Source: Nitrospirota bacterium (lineage in GTDB: Bacteria; Nitrospirota; 9FT-COMBO-42-15; HDB-SIOI813). From it: a stretch of DNA of 64,000 nucleotides. The stretch spans positions 31,569-95,568 of the forward strand of contig JADLDG010000035.1 of NCBI GenBank assembly GCA_020846775.1. Reading direction: 5' to 3'. A program made the position numbers and the translations under genes. Positions 39,012 through 57,428 of the stretch are shown piece after piece (the first letter of the stretch is position 1; each line of letters starts with the position of its first letter). The notes beneath the pieces were generated by a model. That model searched no databases and was not told the DNA's origin. It was given only the letters and a program-made list of their open reading frames with translations.

Positions 39012-39428
39012 CTATTGTCCCACCAATTTTTCATTAAGTTCAGATAAACCATTTTTACCTTCTAAAAGAATTGGATTCAATTCATACTCTATAAGGTCCG
39101 CGAGGGTTATCCAATCCTTTCCTTCAAAGGCAGAGAGCATCTCTTTAAAGATATCAATGGATTTATTCCACGATGAAAGGGATTCTGATGAGATTTCGGA
39201 CTGTTCCAGACCATTCCTCAATTCCCTGATAAAATCCATAAGGTCGCTGAGATTGTCCATCAAGCCTGATATTTCATTAAAGACCCTCTCAGTTTGTTCA
39301 ATCCTGAGGGAATTGGCACAATCCATTAATCTGGCGCTGATCTGCCCAATACTCTCACAGGTGCTTATAATGCCATCAGTTATAGCTGTCAATAATTCCT
39401 CCCTTTTCTTAACATCTATGTTTGCCAT
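39012..39428 (-). CDS. hypothetical protein
   Basis: 138-aa acidic helical ORF. Its start overlaps the stop region of the upstream GT9-like gene (39416..39428), suggesting co-transcription with the flagellar modification island. Confidence 0.35.
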   Translation of the reverse strand: MANIDVKKREELLTAITDGIISTCESIGQISARLMDCANSLRIEQTERVFNEISGLMDNLSDLMDFIRELRNGLEQSEISSESLSSWNKSIDIFKEMLSAFEGKDWITLADLIEYELNPILLEGKNGLSELNEKLVGQ

Positions 39429-41137: not shown

Positions 41138-42952
41138 TCAATCCTTCTTCGCAGCAAACTGCTTACCGATCTCATTTATCAATACAAATATCTTATCCAC
41201 TCTCGAAAGTTCACCCACACCGGACGCCATATCATCAACGATATCAGAGATAGTAATAGCTCCTTTATTTCTGAACCGTTCCAGATACCTGCCAAGTTCA
41301 GTATGCCTGTCAGCCTCTGCGATAAGCCCCTCCACATCCTCTTTTCTTGAATCCCATGAAGGACGCTCATATCCCCTTTCAAGGATAAACTCAAACATCT
41401 TTTCCATCCTGTGCTCATAAGTATGTTCTTTTATCACCCTTTCCATTCCTCTTTGCGCTATCGCAGCCATTTCTTCATGATTTTCCAGATAATAGTTGAT
41501 CTTTCTCCTCGCATCAGTGAGATCTTTAAAGCATATAATCTCTTCATCCATATTGAACAGTTCTAACAAATTAGACCGGCAATCAACCAATTGAAAAGAC
41601 CCGCATGCTGCTATTTCAAATGTCCTTGGATTGACAAAATCACCGTGAGGGTTAACCCCTTCGTGATATGTGGAAGAATGGATGTTAATATTTATCTTCG
41701 AAGCATTAAATATCTTTACTGTCTCTTCTGTATCTATCCATTCACCGCCTCTTTGAATATGCCTCAGCAATGGCAGGCCGACATCCCACTCGCTCCCCCA
41801 TATCTTAAGATCAAAATCAAGCAATCCGCTGAAGAAAAACCTCCTGTTATGGTATCCGGCCCCAACAAACGATATATCACTTCCGTAAGTGTCTATTTCT
41901 TCTTTTGTCAGGTAAAGCCTCCGGTGAACTTCCTGAGATGCAGCCATAGGAAGATATGAGTAGTTTCTAACGCCACTCGCATCTAATTTGTCAAAAAACT
42001 GGTCCCTCTGGATGGTGAAGAAATAATCATAAAGGGGCGCTATCCTCTCCCAGTAGTTCATAAACCTGAAGTCCTCAACAAACCAGAAGGCGGTGGGTAT
42101 CCTGTTCTCTTTAAGCTTCTGCAGACTTCCTTCGGTTAAAGGGGCCTGTGCAAGGGCAAAAACGAGGTCTGGCTTAAACTCTGCGCACCGTGCTATGGCT
42201 GCCTCTGACAGAAAGGAGATAAACATGGAGCGCAGTTGATTCTGATGGGCCTTTTCACCTGTTATCCCGGGGATTGACTGAAAGACTTCGTTATACTTAC
42301 TGTTGTCTACATAATCAACCTGATGACCCAGTTTTTTCAAGGCAGAGACGCAGTATCCTGCAACAGGGAGAGAGCCGCCGTAGATCGGCCCTACGACCAT
42401 GATCTTCAAACCACTCTTCACAGTCTGACGTAATCTTAGTTTCTTATGGAGGTTCTTTAAACATGATTCACTTACCATGACAGATGGACTATGCTCTACT
42501 ATTGTAAAGCATTTTGGCAACAACGGTATTTTATCCCCTGTTAACAGTTTCACCCTTGTGAGGACATGAGTTAAATCAAAATGTTCCAGAGCTGTTTTCA
42601 GGATATCGAGCCTTGGCTCATAGACAATTATCTCCATACCTGAAATATTGCAAATATCGAGCTCGCAAAGCCCGGCAACATGGTACCCAAGTCCAAAACC
42701 GAGGACGACAACAGCAGATCCCATTTCAACCTTTTCCCGCTGATATTCAACCCACTTGCCAGCCTCCTTCTCAGGATCATACAGGCTATGCAGGGTGATA
42801 TCCCCTACCTTCAAAGAAAGTTTCCCTGACTTAGATGTATGCAGCTTCAAATCATCACTGACACATGCCTCAATAACTGAAGTTGCAAGTGCAGGGTCAT
42901 ATTTCTTCATGACCTCTAAATTTCTATCGAATATGAGGTTATTGGCAGACAT
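41138..42952 (-). CDS. Maf-like (DUF115/MptE-like N-terminal) - CgeB-like (DUF3880 + GT1) putative flagellin glycosyltransferase
   Basis: N-terminal HSLYDPEKEA and VVLGFGLGYH motifs recur in the paralog at 46778..48460. The C-terminal half resembles the CgeB/YkvP glycosyltransferase-like domain. Confidence 0.5.
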   Translation of the reverse strand: MSANNLIFDRNLEVMKKYDPALATSVIEACVSDDLKLHTSKSGKLSLKVGDITLHSLYDPEKEAGKWVEYQREKVEMGSAVVVLGFGLGYHVAGLCELDICNISGMEIIVYEPRLDILKTALEHFDLTHVLTRVKLLTGDKIPLLPKCFTIVEHSPSVMVSESCLKNLHKKLRLRQTVKSGLKIMVVGPIYGGSLPVAGYCVSALKKLGHQVDYVDNSKYNEVFQSIPGITGEKAHQNQLRSMFISFLSEAAIARCAEFKPDLVFALAQAPLTEGSLQKLKENRIPTAFWFVEDFRFMNYWERIAPLYDYFFTIQRDQFFDKLDASGVRNYSYLPMAASQEVHRRLYLTKEEIDTYGSDISFVGAGYHNRRFFFSGLLDFDLKIWGSEWDVGLPLLRHIQRGGEWIDTEETVKIFNASKININIHSSTYHEGVNPHGDFVNPRTFEIAACGSFQLVDCRSNLLELFNMDEEIICFKDLTDARRKINYYLENHEEMAAIAQRGMERVIKEHTYEHRMEKMFEFILERGYERPSWDSRKEDVEGLIAEADRHTELGRYLERFRNKGAITISDIVDDMASGVGELSRVDKIFVLINEIGKQFAAKKD

Positions 42953-42989: not shown

Positions 42990-43991
42990 CTAAACTATTG
43001 CTTTTGACGAAGCCCTGTTTATTATGCCTTTAAGCCCAATGGCATCACTTCTTTCGGGCTCAAACAGGAGAAGTTTATCTATGCTATCAAGTGCCTTATC
43101 AAGTTGCCCGAGCTTGAAGCTCACATCTGCATGCCGATAAAGAAAATCAGTATCAGCCGGATGATGTACCAAATACTCCTCCAGGATATCAATAGCCTTA
43201 TTGAAATCCTGGGAATCGATTGCTGACATCAGGGTATTACACATCTTTTTATTTCCAGACTTTTCTGCCTTTATCAGGTATTGAATTATAAAGAGATCTT
43301 TAAGTTCTTCATGTGACAGACCTTTCAGATTAACCCTGCCAAAGGATATCTCTCCTGAAAGAGGATCATGCAAGGAACTATAAGCAGGATCAATATTGGC
43401 AGTTATCCCTGTTATCTCATATCCAGCCTCTGTAAACAGGGATTCCATATCTTTCATCGTAAAGAATCTCAGATGGGTTCTATCGAGGATACCCGAGTCC
43501 TGATACTTCCAATGCCCTTCCACCAGCATGTTTAGAACCCCGTAATACCGTACATTCGGAATGCTTGCGACAATAGAACCAGAATCAGCAAGATAGTGTT
43601 TGAATCTCCTGAGTGTTGACAATGGTTCCTTCAGGTGTTCCAGTATGTCGGCAAATATAATACAGTCAAAATAACCATCTTCATATTGAAGTTCCAGACA
43701 CGTCACATCTCCCTTTATAACCCGTGACAGATTCTCATTTGCCCTCTTACTCGCAATTGGATCAACTTCAATACCAACAACTTCTTCAGCCCCTTTTTCC
43801 AGCAGCCTTTTCCCGAGTATACCCTCTCCGCAACCCACATCAAGAATCCTCATGGCTTCCTCGGGCACAAGAGTCTCGACTTCTTTTCTTCCCTGGCGAA
43901 AGTATTCCCTGTCAACAGTCTTATCTAATCCATTTTGCGTCTGACTCCTCGTATCGTTAATCACTTTATCTCCTGCGCTACATGGATACAT
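42990..43991 (-). CDS. class I SAM-dependent methyltransferase fused to TPR repeats
   Basis: SAM-binding motif I ILDVGCGEGILG. Motif post-I/II (DCIIFADILEHL). C-terminal TPR-like repeats. Confidence 0.6.
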   Translation of the reverse strand: MYPCSAGDKVINDTRSQTQNGLDKTVDREYFRQGRKEVETLVPEEAMRILDVGCGEGILGKRLLEKGAEEVVGIEVDPIASKRANENLSRVIKGDVTCLELQYEDGYFDCIIFADILEHLKEPLSTLRRFKHYLADSGSIVASIPNVRYYGVLNMLVEGHWKYQDSGILDRTHLRFFTMKDMESLFTEAGYEITGITANIDPAYSSLHDPLSGEISFGRVNLKGLSHEELKDLFIIQYLIKAEKSGNKKMCNTLMSAIDSQDFNKAIDILEEYLVHHPADTDFLYRHADVSFKLGQLDKALDSIDKLLLFEPERSDAIGLKGIINRASSKAIV

Positions 43992-46767
43992 AGCCTTCTA
44001 TCTGTCTTTTAAGTTCCACCGCCCCTGTCATTTCTTTATTGAACAATAAAACCTTTTCCAGATTGTCCAGCGCGGTGTCATAGTCATGAAGCTTAGAACA
44101 AACCTCCGAATATTTAATGATAATTGACAAATCAAGTGGATGTAACTCTAAATATGATTCTATTAGTCCCCTGGCGTCTGCATGCCTTCCTTCTGCAATG
44201 GTGGCATCAATCTCAGCTATCAGATCCGCTGGCTCTTCAAATGCCTTTCTGAAAAACCTGAGTGGCGCGCTATTCAACATTTCCAGACCCATTTCTTTTA
44301 CAATGTTATAAAACCCTTCGTTGGTATAACGTTCCACATTCAGATGCCATCCGGCCTCACCATTGTTATTATAAAATGAAGCAAACATAATTAAATAACC
44401 ATTAGGGTTTAAGTGTTCAATCAGGTATTTGACGGTTTTCTCCGGTTCTACCAAATGTTCAACCACATCCAGCATGATCACAACATCATATCTATTTGAA
44501 CCGAGGAAATCATCCTTGTATGCATCAATCATGTTCACATCAAGGCATCTCCTTCCAAACCGCCATTTTGCATAATTGAAGGTCTTGCCGGGGATATCTG
44601 CATAATTAAGTCGTATGTCACTTATCCTGGACAGATTGATGATCTGACTCCCTATCCCGCCGCCAAAATCAAGAATGTCAAGCTTTCCACGTTCAGAGGA
44701 GACTTGCCGACAAAATCTGGTTATCTCATCAATCCCCTGCATATACATGGGATTCTCATAATTGTATTGGACCAGATCATAGAGATATGAATCCGTATTG
44801 ATGTAAAACTCGTTGACCTTTTCCTGGGTCAGAATGCATTTAGAGATGTCACCCCAATCTTTAATCTGTTGGTCATAAACACACCTTATACGACTTATAA
44901 CCTCATCAACATCTACGCCGGTATAACGTGCCAATTCCTGGACCGCTCCTCTAAAAGAGGACTGTACCAGTTCTTCAAAAAGAAGACTGAACTTCTGGGC
45001 TATCTTTTGTGAGTCAAATTCATTAATAGCCCGCTCCCTTCCTTTTATACACAACTCTTTTTTTAATGTGTCATCTTTCAGAAGATTTATAATCGCAGAA
45101 GAAAGTCCTCTCGGATCATTGGATTGAACAAGTATTCCTGCATCACCCACCACCTCCGGAATAGAGCCGGAATAAGTTGAGATAACTGGAAGACCGCAGG
45201 CCATAGCCTCTGTCAAAACCATTCCGAACTGTTCCTTCCATGTTCTTGTAGAAATACTTGGAAGAACAAATATATCGGCCATGTTAAACATTTCATGCAT
45301 TCTGTGGTAAGGGTAGCCCTCTATAAATGTAAACATTGAGCCGACTCCAAGCTCCTCAACCCTGCTTTTAATCCCAGCTGATTCAGATCCTTTTCCAATG
45401 ACTACAAACCTGAAGTGAACATCCTTAACACTATCCTCCTGGGTAACCAATTTTGCAGCGTATAGCAGGTCATAGATACCCTTTTCCCAGACTATTCTTC
45501 CTGTAAACAACACAACTCGCTCCTCTTTGCCGATACCAAATTCTTTTCTTAACCTCCATCTTGCCTCGTTATCCGGCCTGAACCTGTTTACATCAATTCC
45601 CATTGGAATGACAGTTATCTTGTCTTCCGGTACCCCTTCTATGATCAGGGCATCTTTTGCTCTTTCGGTCACGGCAACAAAGTGATCCACCATCTGCCGG
45701 TTAAACCGCTTCATCTCTCTCATCTGCTCATCTTCCTCGTAGGCGAAGGGGATATTTTCCCATTCGAGAGCAATGATCCTCTTTCCAAATTTTTGTTTCA
45801 TAACTGCTGCCTGATATGTAAATATCCAGGTAATATCAGCTGTATAAATAATATCCTTATCGAGGAGTTCTGCCTCAAGGCCTATCATATAGGCAGGGTT
45901 TTGAGGATGGGGAGGAAGTTTAACAACAGGAAGAGTAATATGGGATAGATCAAAACTTGATTGAGTTGTCGTATAAGAAGTTATGTCAAATGTTTTGTAC
46001 AGAGGTTCATAATTCTGCATCTCCCAGTGATTAAGATTAGGCCCCCTTAATATCGCAACCCTGGGACGTTCAGACATCTTTTCAGAAGTATATGGTGGAA
46101 CCCAACGGCTAACCATAGTCCTAAGCGGCCTGACCTGGACATCATATTCCCTGTAAAAAAGTTCTTCCGGATTATTGAAACCACTTTCTTCCATTTGTGA
46201 ATATTGCTCACTTTTTTTCCAATACTTTTCCTTATCCAGGAAACCATAATGTACAACGTATGCATCCCAGTGTTTGTCTAATCCATCGTAAGGTTTCGTC
46301 AATAGTTCATGTAACTGCCCCTCCCATTTGACCTCCTTGCGGTTACGCCAAATCCTCGGAATATTTTCATAATCATCAGCTCCCCTGGAATAATACTTTT
46401 CATTTCCAATGAGATTACACTGACGGATGAAATAACCGGTAGTGTCTCCCGGAGTTGATTCAAGCAGGGTTCTTATATTTTCTTCGAAGTACTGCGAAAA
46501 TGCCTCATCTGCATCAAGGCGCACCACCCAGTCACCTGTGCAATTGTCAAGAGAGATCTGCCGCTGCTTCCCAAAATGGCCTTCCCATATATGTTGAATC
46601 AACGTAACATTCCGGTAAGACCTGAGTATTTCCAGCGTGCCATCAGTACTGCCACCATCAACAACTACGATCTCGTCGGCAAATGTACATGAGCTCAACG
46701 CCCTTGCAATATTCTTTTCCTCATTCATTGTAATCATCGAAACGGAAATCTTCATAACTTCCTCCAA
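43978..46767 (-). CDS. multidomain glycosyltransferase: GT2 - GT4(GT1-fold) - SAM methyltransferase - TPR (929 aa)
   Basis: N-terminal GT-A (ISVSMITMNEEKNI ... VVDGGSTDGT ... DADE). Central GT-B/GT4 segment (VLFTGRIVWEKGI ... EQFGMVLTEAMACGLPVI). C-terminal SAM MTase motif I (ILDFGGGIGSQ ... MLDVVEHL). TPR tail. Confidence 0.6.
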   Translation of the reverse strand: MEEVMKISVSMITMNEEKNIARALSSCTFADEIVVVDGGSTDGTLEILRSYRNVTLIQHIWEGHFGKQRQISLDNCTGDWVVRLDADEAFSQYFEENIRTLLESTPGDTTGYFIRQCNLIGNEKYYSRGADDYENIPRIWRNRKEVKWEGQLHELLTKPYDGLDKHWDAYVVHYGFLDKEKYWKKSEQYSQMEESGFNNPEELFYREYDVQVRPLRTMVSRWVPPYTSEKMSERPRVAILRGPNLNHWEMQNYEPLYKTFDITSYTTTQSSFDLSHITLPVVKLPPHPQNPAYMIGLEAELLDKDIIYTADITWIFTYQAAVMKQKFGKRIIALEWENIPFAYEEDEQMREMKRFNRQMVDHFVAVTERAKDALIIEGVPEDKITVIPMGIDVNRFRPDNEARWRLRKEFGIGKEERVVLFTGRIVWEKGIYDLLYAAKLVTQEDSVKDVHFRFVVIGKGSESAGIKSRVEELGVGSMFTFIEGYPYHRMHEMFNMADIFVLPSISTRTWKEQFGMVLTEAMACGLPVISTYSGSIPEVVGDAGILVQSNDPRGLSSAIINLLKDDTLKKELCIKGRERAINEFDSQKIAQKFSLLFEELVQSSFRGAVQELARYTGVDVDEVISRIRCVYDQQIKDWGDISKCILTQEKVNEFYINTDSYLYDLVQYNYENPMYMQGIDEITRFCRQVSSERGKLDILDFGGGIGSQIINLSRISDIRLNYADIPGKTFNYAKWRFGRRCLDVNMIDAYKDDFLGSNRYDVVIMLDVVEHLVEPEKTVKYLIEHLNPNGYLIMFASFYNNNGEAGWHLNVERYTNEGFYNIVKEMGLEMLNSAPLRFFRKAFEEPADLIAEIDATIAEGRHADARGLIESYLELHPLDLSIIIKYSEVCSKLHDYDTALDNLEKVLLFNKEMTGAVELKRQIEGYVSM

Positions 46768-46777
46768 AACCAGCTGT

Positions 46778-48460
46778 TCAGGAATAGCGCTTCTTCATGC
46801 TGTCAATCAGCATCTTTATCCGGTGGACATACGTATGTTCCCTCGAGATCCTTTCTCTTCCACATTCCGATATTCGCTTTCTTTCCTGAGAATTGTTCAG
46901 ATAAAACTTTAAAAGTCCCGGTATCTCCTCCCTGTTTTTATAGGTTATAACCTCTTTCCCTATATCAAAGAGATCACCTAACGCATCCTGATCATCAGTC
47001 AATAGAAATGCACCACATGCCGGGACATCAAAGACCCGCTGATTAACGGCGCTACCCATCTGCAGATTAGTAGCGTTGAAATTTATCTTGCAGGCATTGT
47101 AAAAGCGGGGAAGTTCACTGTAATAGTTTAACGGAGGCCTGATATTGAAATCTCTGCTTAAGAGTTCATGCCAGCCTTTATCCCCGTAAACCCTCGGACT
47201 GTATTCTTTAAGTCTTTCTATGCAAGAGAGTCTGTATATAAGTGTTGATCTCCAGAGAACAGCGGCCTCAAGATCAAGCCTCTCCTGAACAGGAAGGGCT
47301 CTTACTTTTTCTTGCTCATCATTATTCAACATTCTCAATAATTCATCGAAAGACAGATGAGAGGAACCAAGGCGCTGCGATAACCTTTCAGTAATAGAGC
47401 GCAATTTCACTGGTACCTTTTTCAGCTTTTCTGCTGCCGGTTCGACCATAGAGTTGCCTACAAAACCTATGACTGTATTGAATCTGTTTTTATCCTTCTG
47501 ACTTAAATTTAAAGGTTTAAAGACATCAGTGTCCGCTGCAAGTGGCAGGTATTCAACTAACTCAAAACCCATAGCCTTCATATCGTTTATATATCCCTTA
47601 TCCCATAAATAAAGTGAGACATATGGAGATACATTTTTTTCAAAGGCCTTGACTATAAGATTCGGGCTGTCAACATACCACGATGCCACAGGCATCTCAA
47701 TTGATTTTAAAAAAGATGTCAAGACCCCGTCTTCATCAAAGCCAAGATGGTTAATGGTGAGGAGGAAATCCGGTTTGAATTCAAGGATGGTACTCAACAT
47801 GCGCGATACAATGGCCTCCCCATCTTCTCCCTTCTTTAAAGGAACTTTTACGACCTCTTGACCAAGGCGTTTAATAGCGTCTGCCACCTCGGAGGTCAGG
47901 AAATAGCCATAATCTATAAAGGCGATCTTAGTCTTTTCCTCCTTAAACCTTGGGTATCTGAGCCTTTCCCAGAGCCTGACTGATGTTGTGTTTTTTAAGG
48001 AGATAAGGATAGGATTATAGTAGTCTGGCATGGCTGAAACGACCGGAGCCAGGGGAAAGGAGGCAACAGAAGGCATTCCAGACGTTAACTGATACCTGGT
48101 AATCTCTCTTATAGCCGCATCAGAAGTGACTCCGATTATGAATCTAACCCTATCTTCGATCTCTCCCATCCTACCATATTCCTTTGCCAGTCCATACATC
48201 TCATGACTTGATTCAACCACAATAATCCTGGCCTCCGGAAACCTGCGGACAAGCTCCATCAGATGATAACCAAGCCCCAATCCTAATACCACTAATAGCC
48301 CTTTCCCATCAAAATAAAAGGCATCTGCAATTGCCCTGGCTTCTGCCTCGGGGTCATAGAGGCTGTGAAGTGTTTTTAAAGAGCCGTCTTCATACGTAAC
48401 CCTTATTGAATAACTGCCATTTTTCGTTTCTACTAAGGAATGATTATTGATAACAGACAC
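46778..48460 (-). CDS. Maf-like (DUF115) - CgeB-like putative glycosyltransferase, paralog of 41138..42952
   Basis: HSLYDPEAEA and VVLGLGLGYH N-terminal motifs. C-terminal CgeB-like region. Same architecture as the first paralog. Confidence 0.5.
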   Translation of the reverse strand: MSVINNHSLVETKNGSYSIRVTYEDGSLKTLHSLYDPEAEARAIADAFYFDGKGLLVVLGLGLGYHLMELVRRFPEARIIVVESSHEMYGLAKEYGRMGEIEDRVRFIIGVTSDAAIREITRYQLTSGMPSVASFPLAPVVSAMPDYYNPILISLKNTTSVRLWERLRYPRFKEEKTKIAFIDYGYFLTSEVADAIKRLGQEVVKVPLKKGEDGEAIVSRMLSTILEFKPDFLLTINHLGFDEDGVLTSFLKSIEMPVASWYVDSPNLIVKAFEKNVSPYVSLYLWDKGYINDMKAMGFELVEYLPLAADTDVFKPLNLSQKDKNRFNTVIGFVGNSMVEPAAEKLKKVPVKLRSITERLSQRLGSSHLSFDELLRMLNNDEQEKVRALPVQERLDLEAAVLWRSTLIYRLSCIERLKEYSPRVYGDKGWHELLSRDFNIRPPLNYYSELPRFYNACKINFNATNLQMGSAVNQRVFDVPACGAFLLTDDQDALGDLFDIGKEVITYKNREEIPGLLKFYLNNSQERKRISECGRERISREHTYVHRIKMLIDSMKKRYS

Positions 48461-49973
48461 CCTTTGCTAAAATCTCATCTATTTTATTTAATTCCGAAGT
48501 AACTCTGTTGAGGGATTCCGCCTCCAGGTAATACGCTCCTATAGCATCACCCACAGTCATAGCATATATTTTATAAATACATGCTACAAAGTCTTCCTCC
48601 CGGCCGGATAACGTATTATGTCTGGCCAAAAGATATTCGGAAAACTGATTAAGGTAGTTCATGATATTCGGGATCAATATATTCTGTTTAAAATTATACA
48701 TATTTTGGGGGGAGCGAACGGCATTTTCAAACAACATAGAATACAAAATATTCAGGCCCTCGTCTCCCTGTATTCTCATTCTTTTCAAACCTTTTTCTAT
48801 CCCGTCAGGATGCTTATTTATATTCTTCTGAATAGCACTTAGTAGTGATTTTAATGCTGTCATGGGATTGCTGTTCACGGGGTTAGACTCAGAAATTGAG
48901 AGGTTAATAAGGTTATAGGTACCAATAATCACAGCTACTAACTGGTCCCAGGTAATGTTATATCTTGAAAATAAATAGGGCAGTTCGTTTTGCAAAGTAT
49001 GAACATTGGCCTTTGAACCTATACTATGCCGTTTTAATACGTCAACCGCACCCCTTTCATGCCAATGATAAACGCCCGTTGAATTTAAGTAGCCGATAAC
49101 CTTACGTTTGTGCAGGAGTTTTACACCAAAGTCAATATCCTCTGCATTCATCATGGGGGTGAATTTGACCTCTCCAAATATATCCCTTCTCACACATGAT
49201 GAAACGTTGTCAAAGAATGTCAGCCTCCTTTTCGTAGCCCCATCAAATGCCCTCAGGCCTATTCCCCCAATGTCCATCAAGAGGGTGTACATGGAGTCCT
49301 GCTCAAACCCCAGTATTGTACCCAGCAATTCATTCTTCCATAAACTGAAGAGGTCAGCTTCAGGTTTAACAAACTGCTTTGACGAAAGGGCAGCTAATCG
49401 CGGGTATTCGATTAATGGGCATACCATGTTGTAAAGCCAATAATTATTGATAGGAAGAGCGTCTTGCACTGTAAAGACGAGGTAATCACCTGTCGCTTTT
49501 GCAGCCCCTGTATTTCGGGTCATACCATGATTGAATTCCTTCTGAGGGATATCTATAATTACCGCTCCGAACCCGGCAGCTATCTCTTTTGAATTGTCTG
49601 AAGATCCAGAATCGATCACAATAATTTCTATATCATTTACCTTTCTCTGAGACCTTATCATACCGAGTAAACCCTTTAATTTCTCTCCGCCATTATTGAC
49701 CGGTATAATAACTGAGACTTTATCCGCTATGGCAGACGGCCTTGTTCTTACATCAATTGGCGTTATCTCAAAGAGCAGACTCAATGCATTCCGCAGGGAA
49801 TCATCTTTTTCGACCAGTTTATTGCTCAAATCGGATATCGTACGTTCTGCAGCCATTACTTTCTTTAGATATCTTGTGGCTGCTTCATGTTTTTCCTTGA
49901 ATATGCGACTGGCACATTCCAGGGCCCATTCCATCTCCCGCACTTTGTCTTTTATCACCATATCATTTTGCAT
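48444..49973 (-). CDS. family 2 glycosyltransferase with N-terminal coiled coil and C-terminal unknown domain
   Basis: GT-A motifs VSVIIPVNNGGEKL ... IIVIDSGSSDNS ... DxD-like VQD. Confidence 0.55.
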   Translation of the reverse strand: MQNDMVIKDKVREMEWALECASRIFKEKHEAATRYLKKVMAAERTISDLSNKLVEKDDSLRNALSLLFEITPIDVRTRPSAIADKVSVIIPVNNGGEKLKGLLGMIRSQRKVNDIEIIVIDSGSSDNSKEIAAGFGAVIIDIPQKEFNHGMTRNTGAAKATGDYLVFTVQDALPINNYWLYNMVCPLIEYPRLAALSSKQFVKPEADLFSLWKNELLGTILGFEQDSMYTLLMDIGGIGLRAFDGATKRRLTFFDNVSSCVRRDIFGEVKFTPMMNAEDIDFGVKLLHKRKVIGYLNSTGVYHWHERGAVDVLKRHSIGSKANVHTLQNELPYLFSRYNITWDQLVAVIIGTYNLINLSISESNPVNSNPMTALKSLLSAIQKNINKHPDGIEKGLKRMRIQGDEGLNILYSMLFENAVRSPQNMYNFKQNILIPNIMNYLNQFSEYLLARHNTLSGREEDFVACIYKIYAMTVGDAIGAYYLEAESLNRVTSELNKIDEILAKGVCYQ

Positions 49974-49984: not shown

Positions 49985-51319
49985 TTACGCCAGAAAGGTA
50001 TCATTGATCATTATGGATTCTAAAAAGTCATAATCCACATTTCTAACCTTTGGAGCCATCGCACCTCTATCACTCAAAGACTCTGTATTGTCATCTCCAA
50101 CAATGAGGTTATTGGTTTTATAAAAGTCATATAATGCGCTTCCAGGGACCGGGGTATAAAAGGCAGGGGAAAAATGGACAGGTTTGACCCGTAAAACACC
50201 TTCAACAGTCATCAGATCATCTTCTTTGTGCCATCCGGTATCTGTTGGTATACCAAGGATATAGTTTGCCCAGACCTTTACACCATGTTTATGACAAATC
50301 TCCGCTGCCTTGAAGTTTTGATCTACCGTAACCCCTTTATTGAACCACTTCAATACCCTCGGGCTGAATGACTCAAATCCTACTATCAATAAGAGAAGAC
50401 CTGCAGCTGCCATATCCCCTATGAGTTTATCATTTTTACATATGTTATCAGCCCTGCTTGATGTGACCCATTTAAGACCATATTTCACGATTCCGCTGGA
50501 ATGAAGGGCAGTTATGAACTCTTCAACCCATTTTGGAGATACTATGAACTGATCATCATGGAACATAACGGATTTAATGCCATACCTGTCTATCAGCATC
50601 TTCAGTTCAGCTATGACATTTGACACGCTTCTCCCCCGAATATAAGTTTTTCGAGTCCCGTTTTCTCTTAATTTCGTATAGAGCTGATGCTCTCCAGGCC
50701 CACAACAGAACTTGCATGTATAAGGACATCCCCTTACGTTGATCATCTCAGCCATAGGTAAGGGAAACCTGAAACCAGTTAATCCAAATGGTTCGGAAAA
50801 CATTCTCCTTTTAAAGTCCGGCCAAATTTCCCTTTCCGGGAATGGGATCGTATCAAGATCCGGAGTTTCACCCCAAAAGCATTTAGGGAACATAGACGGA
50901 TCTTCTACCAATTCCACGAAGCTGATTTCTCCTTCACCCTGGATAACATAATCGAAATTGCCGCTATCAATGCACTCCTGCGGGAACATGGTTGGGTGAA
51001 CTCCGCCAGCGACCACAATTACCCCTGGTAAGACCTCTTTGGCTCTTTTGGCAGCTTCCAGAGCTATAGAATATTCTACAGAATGTATGGATATTCCTAT
51101 GAACTCCGGAGAGATAGCCTTTACAACCTGTTCATATTCACTCCAACCTGACAATGTCCTTAAGTCAGCAAGATGAACATCGTGCCCCCTTGCCTTTAAC
51201 GACCCTGCCAGATATGCAAGACCAAGGCGAATGAATGTTGTATCTGGTGATGGTTTGCTTATGTCCGCATTCCATGTGCTATATGCTATTGATGGATTAA
51301 CCAGTAAGACCTTTGCCAT
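49985..51319 (-). CDS. B12-binding domain radical SAM protein (class B rSAM)
   Basis: N-terminal cobalamin-binding-like Rossmann segment. CxxxCxxC cluster motif (CPYTCKFC). Confidence 0.65.
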   Translation of the reverse strand: MAKVLLVNPSIAYSTWNADISKPSPDTTFIRLGLAYLAGSLKARGHDVHLADLRTLSGWSEYEQVVKAISPEFIGISIHSVEYSIALEAAKRAKEVLPGVIVVAGGVHPTMFPQECIDSGNFDYVIQGEGEISFVELVEDPSMFPKCFWGETPDLDTIPFPEREIWPDFKRRMFSEPFGLTGFRFPLPMAEMINVRGCPYTCKFCCGPGEHQLYTKLRENGTRKTYIRGRSVSNVIAELKMLIDRYGIKSVMFHDDQFIVSPKWVEEFITALHSSGIVKYGLKWVTSSRADNICKNDKLIGDMAAAGLLLLIVGFESFSPRVLKWFNKGVTVDQNFKAAEICHKHGVKVWANYILGIPTDTGWHKEDDLMTVEGVLRVKPVHFSPAFYTPVPGSALYDFYKTNNLIVGDDNTESLSDRGAMAPKVRNVDYDFLESIMINDTFLA

Positions 51320-51353: not shown

Positions 51354-52988
51354 TCATTCCAATTGACCGGAATGCTCCCTGCACTCTTTAAATGACCTTA
51401 ATCCGCTTCCCCTGATGAGTTTTATTGTCTCTATTCTTTTAGGTGTCAGCCATGCATCCCTGACAGACATCTCTGTTATATTTGCTTCTGGCTTATCCCA
51501 GGCACCGGCTTCGCATGGGCAAAGCACCACGTCACCATCCGTTGTTATCGCCATCTCATTTTCTATGAAATAGCACAGATTGAAATTTGGCACCTCTTGT
51601 GAGACTTCAGCATCCATTTCCCCTCCTCTTATCCTGTATGCCGGGAACTGAACCTTATTAATGCCCAATTTTTCAAAATAATCTGTAAATTCCTTTCTAC
51701 TTTCAGACATGGTTAGAGGGAGTTGAATCTTTGTCACCCATACATCAGTTTTTGAGTTAAGTCGTTCTCTTATGGAGAGGAAGTTTTTAATATTAGTTAA
51801 AACTACATCAAGATCCAGACCCCGTCTTATCCTTTTGTATAAATCTTTATTCAATGTATCTATAGAAAATACGACAATATCAACATTTCCATCCAATAAC
51901 TGATTTGCCTTATACGTATCCAATAAATATCCAGGCGTCGCTATCCAGTTTTCAAATCCAAGTTTTTTTGCTCTCTTCATAAACCTGTATATCCTGTCGT
52001 CATACAATGGATCATTAATCCACTCCCAGTTTATTTTACACTTCCAGTCAACTTCATCAAAGATTTTATCAACCAGCCTCTCTGGCATCAATTTGTTTTT
52101 TCGTTTTTTTAAAACCATTTTCCTGGGACACATCAAACAACTCGAGGGACATCCAATAGCTGTTTCGAGAGAAAAATATGTGGGCAGCAAAATAGATTTA
52201 TCCAGAATATCCGCACAATCCTCCGAATTAGTACACTTATTGAAAGTATCTGCCTCGTCCTGAGTTAGTCTGATCTTTGAATTATCAGTTTTGATAAAAT
52301 ATCTGTCTTCAACTTGCCTGTCATCTTTCGTCTTATATGCAATGCTTACTTCATGGATACCATCTATCAGAACCAGCGTATTTATGTAAAACCTAAATCC
52401 GCTGCAGCTTGAGTTATTTATGTCGGGATAGATCAATGCGACATCATCCCTCTGCAACCCATATTCTGCCCGCAACAAGTGCCTGCCATCAACATATACT
52501 TCGATAGATCCAATGCCTGTAATGGATATCGCCCATCCTTCAAAGCGCTTGATACCCTGAAGAGGTTGGAGCAATTCCGGCAAATCAAGATGTCTGTGAA
52601 CATTCTCCTCAATTTCAAAATCCTTGTAAATTTTCTTGCATATTTCACGGAGATTAATTGTAGCCTCCGAATATGCAGGGGCCAAATCCAGCGCCTTTGT
52701 GAACTGAAATATTGCATCTATAGACTTTCCTTTAATAAATAAACACGCCCCGTAATTATTTCTTATCTCCGGATTATCCGGATACCTCTCTGTCAAATAC
52801 CCAAATATCCTTTCTGCCTCATCAAATAATCCTGATCCATATTTCCCCATGGCTTGTTCCATCAAGGTAAAATCCTCTGAATTGATATTAAGACCTGCCC
52901 TATGACTGTTGTCTAACATGAGTAAACGACTCCAAATGGTATCTTCTTGACTCCCGCCGCAGTTTAGACGCAGAGGAGTGACTGACAT
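51354..52988 (-). CDS. TPR - radical SAM / SPASM-like domain protein
   Basis: N-terminal TPR. CxxxCxxC motif (CPSSCLMC). C-terminal Cys-rich auxiliary-cluster-like segment (CYFIENEMAITTDGDVVLCPCEAG). Confidence 0.55.
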   Translation of the reverse strand: MSVTPLRLNCGGSQEDTIWSRLLMLDNSHRAGLNINSEDFTLMEQAMGKYGSGLFDEAERIFGYLTERYPDNPEIRNNYGACLFIKGKSIDAIFQFTKALDLAPAYSEATINLREICKKIYKDFEIEENVHRHLDLPELLQPLQGIKRFEGWAISITGIGSIEVYVDGRHLLRAEYGLQRDDVALIYPDINNSSCSGFRFYINTLVLIDGIHEVSIAYKTKDDRQVEDRYFIKTDNSKIRLTQDEADTFNKCTNSEDCADILDKSILLPTYFSLETAIGCPSSCLMCPRKMVLKKRKNKLMPERLVDKIFDEVDWKCKINWEWINDPLYDDRIYRFMKRAKKLGFENWIATPGYLLDTYKANQLLDGNVDIVVFSIDTLNKDLYKRIRRGLDLDVVLTNIKNFLSIRERLNSKTDVWVTKIQLPLTMSESRKEFTDYFEKLGINKVQFPAYRIRGGEMDAEVSQEVPNFNLCYFIENEMAITTDGDVVLCPCEAGAWDKPEANITEMSVRDAWLTPKRIETIKLIRGSGLRSFKECREHSGQLE

Positions 52989-53065: not shown

Positions 53066-53461
53066 TCAGATGCTTATGCTTATAGTGGAGCCATTCTGAT
53101 TACATTTATTATGACGGGAAAATAATTTAAAGTTCTCAAGAACACTTATCTGGTCCAATAAAGAAGCCATTTCTAACTGAAGTGTATTCTTCATCTCATT
53201 GTTACGGGTCAGAATTTTCTCGATGTTTATAACCATCTCCCTTGAACCATTATTACGGTGATTATGGGCCTCCTCATTCAATGGGAGTAACTGTGTATTC
53301 ATTACTTCTCTGTCAATATTTTGGATGTCATCAATAATTCTCTGACGTTTTTCGAGTATTTCTAACGCCTCATCAAACCTTTCATCCCGAAGTGCATTTA
53401 ACTGATCCTCTGCCAGTCCAAGCAGTTTTTTGTACAGACTTAAGACTCTTTCACTACTCAT
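53066..53461 (-). CDS. putative flagellar export chaperone FliT-like protein
   Basis: 131-aa helical protein immediately after fliS (4-nt overlap), in the fliD-fliS-fliT position of Bacillus-type operons. No diagnostic motif. Confidence 0.3.
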   Translation of the reverse strand: MSSERVLSLYKKLLGLAEDQLNALRDERFDEALEILEKRQRIIDDIQNIDREVMNTQLLPLNEEAHNHRNNGSREMVINIEKILTRNNEMKNTLQLEMASLLDQISVLENFKLFSRHNKCNQNGSTISISI

Positions 53462-53874
53462 ACCCTCAACTCCATCCCTGCAGAAACTGCCTCTTTTGGA
53501 ATATTAACAATGTTATTCTTGCCAATATCTTTCCATGCAGATCGTAATACCTCGAGGACCTTAACAGCATCGTCAAGCGCTTTTTCGTCGTTCTTCATAT
53601 TGGCTGTTATTAATCTGTCTAAGACAAAATCATAGAGCCTGCTCAGATTTTTAGCGATCTCCCCGCCTGCCTCCATGTTGATCGAGCTTAATAGCTCCCC
53701 AACCACTGAGGAAGCCTTTCCTATATAAAGCCCCTTACCTGCGATGTCACCAAGCTCTATTCTCTTCCTTGCAACCTTGATAAAATTGATGGCCCCATCA
53801 TACATCAGGGAAATGACTTTTACACTATCGGAAGTATTCACTTCTGCCTTCCTGTAATCTGACACTTGTTGCAT
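53458..53874 (-). CDS. fliS: flagellin-specific chaperone FliS
   Basis: VISLMYDGAINFIKVA pattern. 138 aa. Position after fliD. Confidence 0.8.
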   Translation of the reverse strand: MQQVSDYRKAEVNTSDSVKVISLMYDGAINFIKVARKRIELGDIAGKGLYIGKASSVVGELLSSINMEAGGEIAKNLSRLYDFVLDRLITANMKNDEKALDDAVKVLEVLRSAWKDIGKNNIVNIPKEAVSAGMELRV

Positions 53875-53895
53875 GTTATATACCTCCCGATTATT

Positions 53896-55293
53896 TTACT
53901 GTGAATTCCATTTTGTAATCTGATTATTCAGAAATGTCCCCTGAGAAGTCAGTCCATTTAGCAGTGATTCCAATGCCGAAAATCGTCTCCGCAGATCATC
54001 TTCTACTTTCACCAATCTTGTTTCAAGAGAAGTTATATTACTTGCAATATTATTGACAACAGATTGAAGACCGCTTTTCCTTATGGTCAGAGCTCCGTCG
54101 GTTGATTTTGTGATAGTGTCAGCGTAACTCCATATCTGATTGGCTATGCCGGTAGTGGCAGTTGCAAATAGTTTGGACACATCGTCAATCCTAGCTGAAA
54201 GCTTGTCGCTCAATGTCGTGCTGTTAATCGTTAGTGTCCCATCCTTTGAGTTAGTAGTTATGCCTATCCCTGCGAGTGAATCTACATCAGATGAAGCAGC
54301 TGAAACCGTGCCTATTACCATTGCCTTCATGCTTCTAACCACATCCCTTGCCGTCGCATCACCGAGTAAGGGACCTCCAGTCTTGGTAGTGCTGTCCCAT
54401 GAAGACTTCGAAGCGGCATAATTTATAGCATTGTTATATGCCGTTACAAAGTCCTCGATCTTTTTCTTTATCGAGTCTGTATCATTTGTAACCGCAACAG
54501 TAGCAGAGCTTGTAGATTCCTTTTTAAGGGTAAGGGTTAAACCTGATATTACACCTGATACGTTATTTGAACTGCTTGTAATGTCAATGCCGTTAATCCT
54601 GAGTTTGGCATCCTGGGCGGTCTGATTAGTGGTAAAGGCGCTGCCGGTTAAATCTACTGTACTGCCTGTGCCATCCAGGGTTGTTCCGGAATCGATACTG
54701 ATAGTCTTTGTGCTGCCGCTATCATTACCGGTTAGCGCCAGCTTGTAAACAGAACCATCATATATTATTGTAGCATTAACCCCGGGATTACCAGAGTCGC
54801 TATTGATAAGGTCCCTAAGTCCCTCAAGAGTAGTTCCGTCTGCGACGGTGATGGAACTCTGGGAGCCTGCATAGGTATATTGAAATATTTTATCAGAGCC
54901 GCTGCTGTTAACGCTTGTATTGATGGCAGCAGTCCCAGCAGTATGCGATTTCTGCTCTGACTGGGCGAGCTGTATCTTACCTGCGGTGGAATGAGATGCT
55001 ATCGTATAGCTCCCGGCAGGTGCAGAGTTCGTAGCCGATGCATCAAGGATAGTGCTATCACTGACTGATGCCTTTTTTGCAAAAAAGTTGGATGTTGTCC
55101 TCAATTCATCAGCAGCAGTCTTTAATGACAAGATCTTTGATTGAAAGTCACTATAAGCCGTTATTTTATCGTTGTAGGCCGTCTGTTTGCTTTGAAGCAG
55201 GGTCACCGGACGACGCTCCAACTCCATCAGCTTGGTTATTATATCATTTGCGTTAATGCCGGAACTAAGACCGGAAACAGAAAAAGTAGACAT
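53896..55293 (-). CDS. fliD: flagellar filament capping protein FliD
   Basis: N-terminus SGLSSGINANDIITKLMELERRP is a typical FliD sequence, with a C-terminal coiled coil. 465 aa. Confidence 0.85.
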   Translation of the reverse strand: MSTFSVSGLSSGINANDIITKLMELERRPVTLLQSKQTAYNDKITAYSDFQSKILSLKTAADELRTTSNFFAKKASVSDSTILDASATNSAPAGSYTIASHSTAGKIQLAQSEQKSHTAGTAAINTSVNSSGSDKIFQYTYAGSQSSITVADGTTLEGLRDLINSDSGNPGVNATIIYDGSVYKLALTGNDSGSTKTISIDSGTTLDGTGSTVDLTGSAFTTNQTAQDAKLRINGIDITSSSNNVSGVISGLTLTLKKESTSSATVAVTNDTDSIKKKIEDFVTAYNNAINYAASKSSWDSTTKTGGPLLGDATARDVVRSMKAMVIGTVSAASSDVDSLAGIGITTNSKDGTLTINSTTLSDKLSARIDDVSKLFATATTGIANQIWSYADTITKSTDGALTIRKSGLQSVVNNIASNITSLETRLVKVEDDLRRRFSALESLLNGLTSQGTFLNNQITKWNSQ

Positions 55294-55323
55294 CCATTAC
55301 ACCCCTTCATCCTGAAAAACAAT

Positions 55324-55698
55324 CTAGGCAAATACATCTAACATATGCCATTTATGTCCCTTGATCTTCTTGGAAAGCTCAATAAGCTCCTCCGAAGGTA
55401 TCTGTCTGATGACGTCCCCGCTCTCTTTATCTACAACCTTGACTATCACGGCATCCAACTCATTATCAATCTCAAATCTAATTTCCTTGTTGAAAGAGTT
55501 TTCAAGATTGGTAATGGCATCTGACAGCTGTTCCTTTCTGTTCTTTTTGACTTCTACATCTTTCGACGGAGGCTTCCCTGAGTTCTGTTTAACCGCATCT
55601 CCACGATTGTTTTCTGTTCTTAACGGGACAGTAGTGTCATGTATTCCCACCACTGCTACATTCATGCTGCTATTATCGCTCATCATAGCTGACTCCAT
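55324..55698 (-). CDS. flaG: flagellar protein FlaG
   Basis: C-terminal FlaG pattern (VVKVVDKESGDVIRQIPSEELIEL). Start proposed at MESAMMSDN (55698) because the longer ORF would run through an apparent terminator hairpin. Confidence 0.6.
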   Translation of the reverse strand: MESAMMSDNSSMNVAVVGIHDTTVPLRTENNRGDAVKQNSGKPPSKDVEVKKNRKEQLSDAITNLENSFNKEIRFEIDNELDAVIVKVVDKESGDVIRQIPSEELIELSKKIKGHKWHMLDVFA

Positions 55699-55704
55699 GT
55701 AAAT

Positions 55705-55736
55705 ATGGGGACGGCACTGTTGGCAGGCCGCCCCCA
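55705..55736 (-). terminator. putative rho-independent terminator downstream of flagellin gene
   Basis: Minus-strand ggggcggcctgccaacagtgccgtcccc forms an imperfect GC stem followed by atattt. It is conspicuously GC-rich and lies about 30-60 nt after the fliC stop. Confidence 0.4.
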
Positions 55737-55763
55737 TATCCTTATTAATTTCAGATTAACACC

Positions 55764-56618
55764 CTACTTCAAGAGCTGAAGCGCAATCTGTGGAAGCGTA
55801 TTAGCCTGGGCTAAGACTGCCGTTGAGGCCTGCATCAATATCTGATTCTTGGTAAATACAGCTGTCTCGTAGGCAAAATCAGCATCTCTGATACGTGACT
55901 CTGCAGCCGTGAAATTCTCAGAAGCTACACTCAAATTGGAGATGGTTATCTCAAGTCTATTCTGAGAAGCACCAATATCACCTCTCTTACCAGCAACGTT
56001 TGAGATTGCACTGTCAATCATGGACAGCGCAGCTGCTGCACTTGCGACGACAGAGATAGTCGTAGCAGCGCCTGTAAGTCCAAGGGCGCTCTGGGCGTGC
56101 AGTGATGCCGCCCCGCTGAGTCCCGAAAGAACATTGACTGTATTGCCGGATCCATTCTGGAATCCAACCTGCAATGATATGCCTGTTCCGCTGAGTGAAC
56201 CATCCAGCAGTTTCGTGCCGTTAAATTCGGTAACATCGGCGATCCTGTTTATCTCAGCAGTCAGGGACTGATATTCCTGATCCAGTTTTGCCCTTTCAGT
56301 ATCGCCAAGGCTTCCATTGGCAGACTGTTGTGCGAGCTCCCTCATCCTTATCAGGATGTTGCTTACCTCTCCCATAGCGCCTTCTGCCACCTGAGTAAGA
56401 CTCATCCCATCCTGAGAGTTTCTAATGGCCTGGCCGATGCTGCGGACGTGGGCCCTTAACTTCTCAGATATTGCCAGACCTGCGGCATCATCCTTTGCTG
56501 TATTAATCCTCAATCCTGAAGACAGTCTCTGTATGGATTGGGTCAAAGCTTCGTTGTTCTTAGAAAGTGTTTTTTGAGCCGTCAGAGATGCGAAGTTGGT
56601 GTTGATTACTAATGACAT
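55764..56618 (-). CDS. fliC: flagellin (short form, D0/D1 only)
   Basis: N-terminus INTNFASLTAQKTLSKNNEALTQSIQRLSSGLRINTAKDDAAGLAISEKL. Conserved C-terminus. 284 aa. Strong SD AAGGAGGA. Confidence 0.9.
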   Translation of the reverse strand: MSLVINTNFASLTAQKTLSKNNEALTQSIQRLSSGLRINTAKDDAAGLAISEKLRAHVRSIGQAIRNSQDGMSLTQVAEGAMGEVSNILIRMRELAQQSANGSLGDTERAKLDQEYQSLTAEINRIADVTEFNGTKLLDGSLSGTGISLQVGFQNGSGNTVNVLSGLSGAASLHAQSALGLTGAATTISVVASAAAALSMIDSAISNVAGKRGDIGASQNRLEITISNLSVASENFTAAESRIRDADFAYETAVFTKNQILMQASTAVLAQANTLPQIALQLLK

Positions 56619-56623
56619 GTTAT

Positions 56624-56686
56624 AATCCTCCTTGTTATTTATTGATACCGGCAGCCATGCCGGTATTGGGCATCCTTGCCCATGTT
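56624..56686 (-). promoter_or_regulatory. flagellin 5' leader with putative CsrA binding sites (GGA-loop hairpin plus SD-overlapping site)
   Basis: Minus-strand hairpin tgggca-AGGA-tgccca (56667-56682). Adjacent 9-bp-stem hairpin (56645-56666). SD caAGGAGGA (56627-56632). This matches the known two-site CsrA binding architecture of hag leaders. Confidence 0.45.
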
Positions 56687-56753
56687 AGTCACTCTTTTTT
56701 TCACCTCCTTTTTCTCTTATTATTTATATTTGTTAAATTATCCATTGGATTCA

Positions 56754-56780
56754 TTTTCGGAATCTTCTCAGTAAACTTAA
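56754..56780 (-). promoter_or_regulatory. putative sigma-28 (FliA/SigD) promoter of flagellin gene
   Basis: Minus-strand TTAAGTTT-N11-TCCGAAAA versus the consensus TAAAGTTT-N11-GCCGATAA (7/8 and 6/8). Confidence 0.4.
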
Positions 56781-56917
56781 GAAACCATCTTTTATCCCAT
56801 ACTCACTATCAAAATAGGCCTTACAGGGATCCAAAGAGACATAGATAGACAAAATAATCACCTGTAAACTCCTTAATCAACGACGTGATATTATGAGAGT
56901 ATAATAAGCACTTTCTT

Positions 56918-57370
56918 CTATGGATTGGAGACAGGAATATCTTGTAATAATGGATAGCGAAGTGGATATTTATCATCTAAGAGGACAAACTGTTTTGCCT
57001 CTCCCGTCTTCAGATTTACAATAAGCGGTCCCTGGAGATTTGCTGTCATCATCTCTGGCATCTCATGGGGTATAGTTACAATTACAAATATGCAGCAGTC
57101 GGCGAGGCCGTTCATATTAAGTTCCCGCAAGACGTGCTCATCTATTTCACTATTATAATCAGGACATAAGAGCAACGGATCTATTACCACAAATACCAGA
57201 TCAGGTTCATTAACAGCCTGAAGCCATTTGAATGGTATATCAGGGTTATTCATATTGTCTAATAAAACGTAGTGTTTTACATCAGCAAAGCCAAGCAGAC
57301 CACTGTGAAATATGATAACCTTGTCTTCGTCTATCTCAATTTCGCCAAATCTGGATGTATAGAGTTTCAT
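56918..57370 (-). CDS. fliW: flagellar assembly factor FliW
   Basis: 150 aa. N-terminus FGEIEIDEDKVIIFHSGLLGF typical of FliW. Adjacent to csrA and flagellin. Confidence 0.85.
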   Translation of the reverse strand: MKLYTSRFGEIEIDEDKVIIFHSGLLGFADVKHYVLLDNMNNPDIPFKWLQAVNEPDLVFVVIDPLLLCPDYNSEIDEHVLRELNMNGLADCCIFVIVTIPHEMPEMMTANLQGPLIVNLKTGEAKQFVLLDDKYPLRYPLLQDIPVSNP

Positions 57371-57428
57371 TGGCCCCCTCTCTCACCATACACCCTCACT
57401 CTCAGGTGAAAGGGTTAGAAGTGAGAAG

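Follow-up and report, generated by a model that had tools for sequence, protein, structure and literature searches.

The structurally characterised class I B12-radical SAM enzymes TsrM, MgmA (QCMT), CysS, TokK and OxsB are built from a Rossmann domain of five strands and five helices that leads into a radical SAM barrel. They act on substrates as different as tryptophan, a protein glutamine, carrier-bound intermediates and a nucleotide. The class is very large, with more than 100 groups still unexplored, and C-methyltransferase is by far the commonest activity among its characterised members, the sugar methylases GenK, GenD1, Fms7 and MoeK5 included (PMC12931638). Judged from their descriptions, GenK, GenD1/GntE, Fms7 and MoeK5 combine the common two-domain class B architecture with carbohydrate substrates and tailoring beside glycosyltransferases; however, their place is in the secondary metabolism of aminoglycosides or moenomycin, and no flagellar or protein-linked glycan is their substrate (PMC12931638). 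All B12-radical SAM structures show the base-off/His-off pattern, in which the histidine ligand of a DxHxxG motif is missing (PMC12931638). According to a 2026 review, methylating and non-methylating enzymes of the class are indistinguishable by sequence or structure (PMC12931638).

The flagellin glycosylation islands described so far, of the Maf, FlmG or GmaR type, have glycosyltransferases adjoining the flagellin, fliD and fliS genes, Maf_flag10_N domains, and fusions of TPR segments to enzymes. The enzymes known to tailor flagellin glycans are conventional ones, namely O- and N-methyltransferases, acyl transferases and amidotransferases. The preliminary description of the present locus had remarked that a radical C-methylation would be unusual for a flagellin glycan, and this agrees with what we found: no radical SAM enzyme appeared in the flagellin glycosylation literature searched. 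Searches on flagellin glycosylation, glycans and O-antigen in combination with radical SAM or B12 enzymes, as well as broader searches on B12-binding/flagellar/Nitrospirae and flagellin/Maf/Nitrospirae, returned nothing relevant.

The locus described here lies in a window of 64,000 nucleotides (the whole stretch of DNA that was analysed) from an uncultured Nitrospirota bacterium (GenBank assembly GCA_020846775.1, contig JADLDG010000035.1, positions 31,569 to 95,568). The features considered are collected in Table 1.

Table 1. Positions, in the window, of the B12-radical SAM gene, its parts and its neighbours. L numbers denote comparative loci.
Feature	Position	Strand	Length	Description and basis
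Flagellar filament genes	53066..56618	(-)		Pfam
Flagellin	55764-56618	(-)	284 aa	Pfam
FlaG	55324-55737	(-)		Pfam
FliD	53896-55293	(-)		Pfam
FliS	53458-53874	(-)		Pfam
FliT-like ORF	53066-53461	(-)		32% identical to FliT gene of L093
TPR + radical SAM/SPASM protein	51354..52988	(-)	544 aa	Island gene 1; Pfam Radical_SAM, SPASM, TPR
B12-binding-domain radical SAM enzyme	49985..51319	(-)	444 aa	Island gene 2 of nine; Pfam PF02310 + PF04055; AF2 model; class B fold matches
Cobalamin-binding-type Rossmann domain	50909..51232	(-)	aa 30-137	Pfam PF02310
Radical SAM core	50228..50734	(-)	aa 196-364	Pfam PF04055
[4Fe-4S] motif C198-PYT-C202-KF-C205, then C206	50705..50728	(-)		39-homologue alignment
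Partner GT2 (GT-A fold)	48444..49973	(-)	509 aa	Pfam
CgeB/Maf-like glycosyltransferase	46778..48460	(-)	560 aa	Pfam Glyco_trans_1_2, DUF3880, weak Maf_flag10_N
GT2 + GT4 + class I methyltransferase	43978..46767	(-)	929 aa	Three-domain protein; Pfam
Class I SAM methyltransferase with C-terminal TPR	42990..43991	(-)	333 aa	Pfam
Maf-like glycosyltransferase	41138..42952	(-)	604 aa	Pfam Glyco_trans_1_2, DUF3880, Maf_flag10_N (34.8 bits vs 23.5)
GT9 (heptosyltransferase-type) glycosyltransferase	39416..41134	(-)		C-terminal extension of ~230 aa; Pfam, NCBIfam
DUF8042-like small protein	39012..39428	(-)	138 aa	Last island gene; tblastn

The ORF of the B12-radical SAM protein is preceded by a GGAGG ribosome-binding site 8 nt upstream of its ATG. 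The preliminary description had recognised a B12-binding-like Rossmann segment followed by CPYTCKFC and had placed the protein in class B; the profile searches bear this out. The B12-binding profile PF02310 matches with an E value of 7e-21 and 74.7 bits against a Pfam gathering score of 32.1, and the Radical_SAM profile PF04055 with an E value of 9e-18 and 65.4 bits against a cut-off of 29.5. CPYTCKFC corresponds to aa 198-205, and in an alignment of 39 homologues with 30-79% identity the cysteines C198, C202 and C205 are invariant and form a CX3CX2C motif, while C206 is kept in close relatives only. A 100% identical protein already carries the NCBI name 'B12-binding domain-containing radical SAM protein [Nitrospirae bacterium]', so the domain assignment by itself is no novelty.

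An AF2 model computed from the 39-sequence alignment (mean pLDDT 93.3, pTM 0.90) shows an N-terminal Rossmann domain (aa 3-139) of five strands and five helices, a linker and a radical SAM barrel. The Rossmann domain carries GGVHPT at aa 105-110 and GEGE at aa 128-131. In the register of the PF02310 alignment the place of DxHxxG is taken by T27-F-I-R-L-G32, so that the sequence lacks the histidine ligand, as expected for a base-off/His-off protein; cobalamin binding is predicted. We conclude that the product has a genuine class B architecture in which the cobalamin-type domain is intact, and that its subfamily is uncharacterised.

Next we considered where the protein stands among the described families. 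It reached no curated NCBIfam model; all 20 matches were far under their cut-offs. The best score was that of BchE (119 bits vs a cut-off of 481), followed by HpnJ (101 vs 578) and HpnR (86 vs 650), while MgmA gave 53.9 bits vs 360 and NF033070, the AprD4 family, 43.8 bits vs 500. The equivalog cut-offs of BchE, HpnJ, HpnR, MgmA, PhpK and others were not reached, and no NCBIfam model for GenK, GenD1, Fms7 or MoeK5 was matched. The top scores of BchE, HpnJ and HpnR assign the protein to the large BchE-like part of the B12-radical SAM superfamily; however, they lie 4- to 7-fold under the equivalog cut-offs, and the tetrapyrrole or hopanoid context of these enzymes is absent here.

Among solved structures the best sequence-profile matches were AprD4 (6FD2, E 7e-32) and MgmA (9CCB, 3e-31), followed by OxsB (2e-25), TsrM (2e-19) and TokK (2e-15). 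A Foldseek search with the model also ranked AprD4 first (TM 0.70), then TsrM, MgmA, OxsB, TokK and CysS, and the structural lead of AprD4 over the cobalamin enzymes TsrM and MgmA is narrow. TsrM, MgmA, CysS, TokK and OxsB share the Rossmann-to-barrel arrangement with the present protein and align with it in the GGxHxT and GEGE regions, but their identity to it is only 14-20% and they carry extra C- or N-terminal domains that it does not have. The cobalamin domains of OxsB, TsrM and TokK align with its whole N-terminal domain, including GGxHPT and GEGE, whereas AprD4 aligns from profile position 130 onward only and has GDHT where GEGE stands.

AprD4 is a radical SAM sugar 1,2-diol dehydratase of apramycin biosynthesis that binds no cobalamin. 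It requires the reductase AprD3. Its N-terminal domain does not align with the family of the present protein, its cluster motif is CX3CX3C and not CX3CX2C, and Pfam detected no gene for an NAD(P)-dependent or AprD3-like reductase in the island. Together with the NF033070 score, the motif and the missing reductase place the protein outside the AprD4 family.

The neighbourhood of the gene is flagellar. Upstream on the minus strand the genes for FlgK, FlgL, CsrA, FliW, flagellin, FlaG, FliD, FliS and the FliT-like ORF follow each other in this order, and after a gap of 77 bp the island begins. Its genes are closely packed: the gaps among the eight large ones, from 51354-52988 to the GT9 gene, range from -17 to +37 bp, and the last gene, of 138 aa, shares 13 bp with the GT9 gene. 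No terminator-like site was found in any intergenic gap of the island, and scanning for promoters and terminators brought up nothing beyond what shuffled sequence gives, which neither supports nor breaks an operon reading. Downstream of the B12-radical SAM gene lie seven glycosyltransferase/methyltransferase genes. The product of the last island gene is 52%, 33% and 37% identical to the terminal DUF8042 genes of the islands in L093, L092 and L089, respectively (tblastn); a plus-strand ORF at 38950-39468 was dismissed as spurious, this conserved minus-strand gene being preferred.

Several other island genes recur elsewhere. The CgeB/Maf-like glycosyltransferase has orthologues in L004, L005 and L089 (tblastn). 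The GT9 protein has one in L089 (43% over 572 aa, tblastn), and at the same position L089, L092 and L093 each have a PF01075 Glyco_transf_9 gene (569-579 aa). The methyltransferase domain of 42990..43991 resembles the N-terminal methyltransferase that is attached to the partner GT2 in L004, L006 and L091.

Co-oriented glycosyltransferases, including the Maf type, stand beside flagellin, fliD and fliS, and the arrangement is conserved in independent genomes; the flagellar glycosylation context given in the preliminary description is upheld. The island differs from the described ones in having two radical SAM genes and a GT9 gene, and no nonulosonic-acid genes occur in the window. Nucleotide-sugar pathway and cobalamin genes were likewise not found in the window, the rest of which is housekeeping (purine, riboflavin, isoprenoid and chemotaxis genes and a hybrid histidine kinase). 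Pfam detected no flippase, polymerase, ligase or initiating phosphoglycosyltransferase in the island; because a flippase, a polymerase and an initiating transferase are missing there, cytoplasmic protein glycosylation fits better than polysaccharide export. The island products are predicted to glycosylate the flagellin of this uncultured organism. The ORF, its domains and its flagellar context are far beyond chance.

The most constant neighbour is the GT2 gene. A full-length orthologous GT2 lies directly downstream of the B12-radical SAM gene in seven of seven loci examined by tblastn (L004, L005, L006, L089, L090, L091 and L092), with identities of 57, 51, 49, 40, 34 and 28% over ~430-518 residues in the first six of these, and a class I methyltransferase is fused to it in four of the orthologous loci. 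In two protein searches, sixteen pairs of B12-radical SAM and GT2 homologues have the same 'longest contig' length and so presumably lie on the same contigs. In the AF2 model of the partner GT2 (pLDDT 90) a 65-residue N-terminal helix precedes a GT-A core, and the C-terminal domain is helical. The fold resembles those of TarP, TarS and RmlT, and the sequence profile of the GT2 matches chondroitin synthase and GmaR, the GlcNAc transferase of Listeria flagellin (E 2.5e-10 for GmaR). Distant homologues of the GT2 domain bear the automatic names 'rhamnosyltransferase/rfbN', which is only a weak hint to the sugar. The TPR-radical SAM/SPASM neighbour was also considered as a conserved partner and was rejected, as tblastn found no homologue of it beside the orthologues. 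In L090 a split TPR and radical SAM-SPASM pair upstream of the B12-radical SAM gene is analogous to 51354..52988, with no homology detected by tblastn.

Most of the relatives that were compared sit in flagellar islands. The closest (L004, 79% identity) follows flagellin-FliD-FliS and encodes an enzyme with an N-terminal sulfotransferase domain. In L089 and L092 (both 73%) FliS/FliT are followed by an island that is the same as that of the window. In L090 (71-72%) the order is TPR, radical SAM-SPASM, B12-radical SAM and methyltransferase-GT2, then FlbD, MotAB, FlaF and FlbT; genes for cobalamin salvage occur 4-10 kb away. L091 (60%) is located between FlhA/MotB and FlgO/MotA/FlhF, and L010 (34%, Nitrospiraceae) among FlgL, CsrA, FliW, a Maf-like glycosyltransferase, GT9 and flagellin. 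L005 (71%) and L006 (67%) have glycosyltransferases, the latter with rhamnose-pathway genes, and no flagellar genes within 10 kb. The more distant relatives stand between GT2 genes in polysaccharide clusters: L007 and L008 (41-44%) in clusters of the Wzx type, and L094 (39%) in a Wzm/Wzt cluster with a second B12-radical SAM gene and an O-antigen ligase. L093 has FliS-FliT followed by GT2, CgeB-like and Maf-like glycosyltransferases, GT9 and DUF8042, with a sulfotransferase-TPR gene and no B12-radical SAM gene. Fusions of the enzyme occur with sulfotransferase (P0002, P0006) and with GT2 (P0101). A wider search with a second alignment yielded 80 loci; all but L009 and L010 contained generic B12-radical SAM paralogues of 24-31% identity, which lack the partner GT2 and flagellar genes and are therefore uninformative for orthology.

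The gene is thus an optional part of otherwise similar islands. Because of its presence or absence in the same island, its fusions and the sister clade in O-antigen-like clusters, we interpret it as a module for optional tailoring of a glycan. The comparative findings point to a probable carbohydrate substrate, a functional link with the GT2 and an accessory tailoring role.

The reaction type is not readable from the protein sequence; we infer both methyl transfer and the identity of the substrate. C-methylation of a sugar of the flagellin glycan is in our opinion the most likely reading, held tentatively and at a probability somewhat short of one half. In this case a flagellin O-glycosylation island would use the protein as an optional tailoring module, which would act with the GT2 encoded directly downstream. 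A reduced [4Fe-4S] cluster on C198, C202 and C205 would cleave SAM to a 5'-deoxyadenosyl radical, which would abstract a hydrogen from an unactivated carbon of the sugar, be it that on which the partner GT2 works or one in the flagellin-linked glycan. Methylcobalamin, bound base-off/His-off in the N-terminal Rossmann domain, would then give its methyl group to the sugar radical, and a second SAM would re-methylate the cobalamin. The flagellar filament would then be expected to bear a C-methylated (branched) sugar.

This reading draws on the prior from the characterised members, sugar methylases among them, and on the ordinary methyltransferases of the island; since class I O- and N-methyltransferases are already there, a radical enzyme would be needed only at chemically hard positions. 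The active-site residues speak less clearly. Radical C-methyltransferases are described as having a hydrophobic lower-axial residue and an aromatic residue between cobalamin and cluster (PMC12931638). Alignments to TsrM and OxsB place H79 at the lower-axial position, opposite the polar TsrM R69 and OxsB N186, and neither of these two enzymes carries out radical methylation (PMC12931638). The TokK alignment instead gives the hydrophobic V81, which aligns with TokK W76, so that the lower-axial residue is ambiguous. At the position of TokK W215 the protein has G207-P208 and no aromatic residue. This ambiguity and the missing aromatic weigh somewhat against C-methylation, as do the failure to reach any curated family, the rank of the cobalamin-independent AprD4 as top structural neighbour, the inseparability of non-methylating enzymes by sequence and the lack of nucleotide-sugar genes in the window. 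The preliminary description had called the architecture typical of class B radical SAM methyltransferases and had suggested that the protein could C-methylate. The step to a C-methyltransferase does not follow: the best NCBIfam score is 119 of 481 bits, the closest structure is AprD4, and the two types of enzyme are inseparable by sequence (PMC12931638).

The same module could act on the flagellin glycan by other radical chemistry, such as an AprD4-like dehydration or deoxygenation, an oxidation, an epimerisation, or a ring rearrangement like those of OxsB or HpnJ, with cobalamin absent or serving as an electron sink. We consider this rather unlikely, though a serious competitor. Several points speak against it: the AprD4 family model scores a small fraction of its cut-off, the N-terminal domain of AprD4 fails to align whereas those of true cobalamin binders do, the invariant cysteine motif is of the other spacing, and the island has no AprD3-like reductase gene. 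Methylases, moreover, predominate among the characterised members of the class (PMC12931638).

Two further proposals change the substrate instead of the chemistry. In the first, the enzyme would modify the flagellin polypeptide, for example by C-methylation of a side chain. Such activities exist in the class: MgmA and Mmp10 act on methyl-coenzyme M reductase, and PoyC acts on peptides. MgmA is among the three closest solved structures, the gene adjoins the flagellin genes, and the TPR proteins of the island are possible protein-binding modules. However, the MgmA model falls far under its cut-off, the constant neighbour is the GT2 and not flagellin, and the homologue clusters L005, L006, L007 and L094 have no flagellin within 10 kb. 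The enzyme is fused to sulfotransferase and GT2 domains in its relatives and itself carries no TPR. A polypeptide substrate seems improbable to us. The preliminary description had named a flagellin sugar or amino acid as possible substrates; the sugar stands as the most likely reading, and the amino acid fits poorly with relatives flanked by or fused to glycan enzymes. In the second proposal the island would build a cell-surface polysaccharide or lipid-linked glycan and its flagellar position would be incidental, as might be suspected from the 39-44% relatives in O-antigen-like clusters of the Wzx or ABC-transporter type, from the heptosyltransferase-type GT9 gene, and from L005 and L006 with their lack of nearby flagellar genes. 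We give this little credence, given an island without flippase, polymerase, ligase or initiating phosphoglycosyltransferase. The same island also follows fliS/fliT in four independent genomes, including one that lacks the radical SAM gene, Maf-type domains are present, and the profile of the partner GT2 matches GmaR.

The protein is accordingly an uncharacterised member of a known enzyme class in a context that is unreported in the literature searched. The novelty lies in the conserved setting in flagellar islands, the GT2 as a fixed partner, the fusions to sulfotransferase and the natural variation in presence or absence. The fixed partner, together with islands that contain or lack the gene, provides a defined biological context for one uncharacterised B12-radical SAM group, and this makes the substrate experimentally approachable. 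Should it prove not to methylate, the enzyme would count among the rare non-methylating members, with a glycan as its substrate.

A broader reading, possible but doubtful at present, is that this is the first case of cobalamin-dependent radical SAM tailoring of a protein-linked glycan, in which a sugar of the flagellin O-glycan undergoes a C-C bond-forming or other radical change. On this view the enzyme would belong to a mix-and-match toolkit of flagellar islands of the Nitrospirota type, comprising the B12-radical SAM protein with or without a fused sulfotransferase, the TPR-radical SAM/SPASM protein, the methyltransferase-TPR protein and the sulfotransferase-TPR protein. If this is true, a C-branched, possibly sulfated and as yet undescribed flagellar sugar is predicted. 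A conserved module of this kind would add C-H functionalisation to the chemistry of protein glycosylation and would predict new flagellar sugars in widespread anaerobes (Nitrospirota, Thermodesulfobacteriota).

Some homologues of the island's B12-binding-domain radical SAM enzyme (B12-rSAM) carry an additional domain. In P0002 (from locus L004), P0006, P0009 and P0011, all close homologues that are 75-79% identical to the window protein, a PAPS-type sulfotransferase domain is fused to the N-terminal side of B12-rSAM. In locus L093, which has the same island without B12-rSAM, a sulfotransferase-TPR gene occupies the same position. Together, these arrangements suggest that the flagellar glycans are sulfated and that tailoring modules can replace one another.

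The island also encodes a second radical SAM enzyme. Its radical SAM/SPASM domain is joined to a TPR region at the N terminus and to roughly 150 residues that match no Pfam family; next to flagellin genes such a TPR-SPASM fusion is unusual. No homologue of this protein was found beside the B12-rSAM orthologues in the compared loci, the sole counterpart being an analogous split pair in L090.

Features of the window and of the compared loci
Feature	Locus	Position	Strand	Length
TPR + radical SAM/SPASM protein	window	51354-52988	-	544 aa by ORF list (521 aa in another call)
GT2 + GT4 + class I methyltransferase protein	window	43978-46767	-	929 aa
GT9 (LPS heptosyltransferase-type), C-terminal extension of ~230 aa	window	39416-41134	-	
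Small DUF8042-like gene, last of island, after GT9	window	39012-39428	-	
ORF, probably not a gene	window	38950-39468	+	172 aa
Flagellin region	window	55764-58659	-	
P0002, sulfotransferase-B12-rSAM fusion	L004	10001-12064		
Cobalamin lower-ligand/salvage genes	L090	1-3900		
Feature in the sister-clade cluster with two B12-rSAM genes	L094	13309-14808		

The GT9 and DUF8042-like genes are kept as a pair in L089, L092 and L093. That a flagellar island encodes a GT9 enzyme is a hint that a protein may be heptosylated. The plus-strand ORF in this region matches no family and overlaps the conserved DUF8042-like gene. The L089 counterpart of the three-domain GT2-GT4-methyltransferase protein is shorter (789 aa). 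The flagellin itself, whose gene comes after FlgL and a CsrA-FliW pair, is short (284 aa), a length consistent with a D0/D1-only type; any glycosylation would thus have to sit on the conserved core domains.

Between 2001 and 64000 there are 54 ORFs of 150 aa or longer. The plus strand carries 9 of these, several of them overlapping minus-strand genes, and the minus strand carries the rest. Of the 31 two-kb bins that start at 2001, 30 show a negative GC skew; the exception, 34001-36000, has a value close to zero (-0.002). Both features are consistent with a single replichore in which the genes are oriented along the leading strand.

Genes related to B12 occur around some orthologues elsewhere. 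In L090, the opposite strand carries genes for CobU, CobT, CobS, and CobC-like and CbiA/CobQ-like proteins at a distance of 4-10 kb upstream from the orthologue; their proximity may be a coincidence, and such genes were not seen near B12-rSAM in the other compared loci. In the complete Nitrospiraceae genome CP070644.1 (L005; features at 9256-9975 and 3278-6510), the DNA directly upstream of the orthologue encodes a free-standing B12-binding-domain protein of 137 aa and a TPR fragment of 68 aa, with two more B12-rSAM genes and one aminotransferase gene close by on the other strand. In the more distant sister-clade locus L094 (39% identity), two distinct B12-rSAM genes are interspersed with GT2 genes in an ABC-transporter-type O-antigen-like cluster, and B12-radical SAM tailoring in bacterial polysaccharide synthesis may therefore be wider than has been documented.
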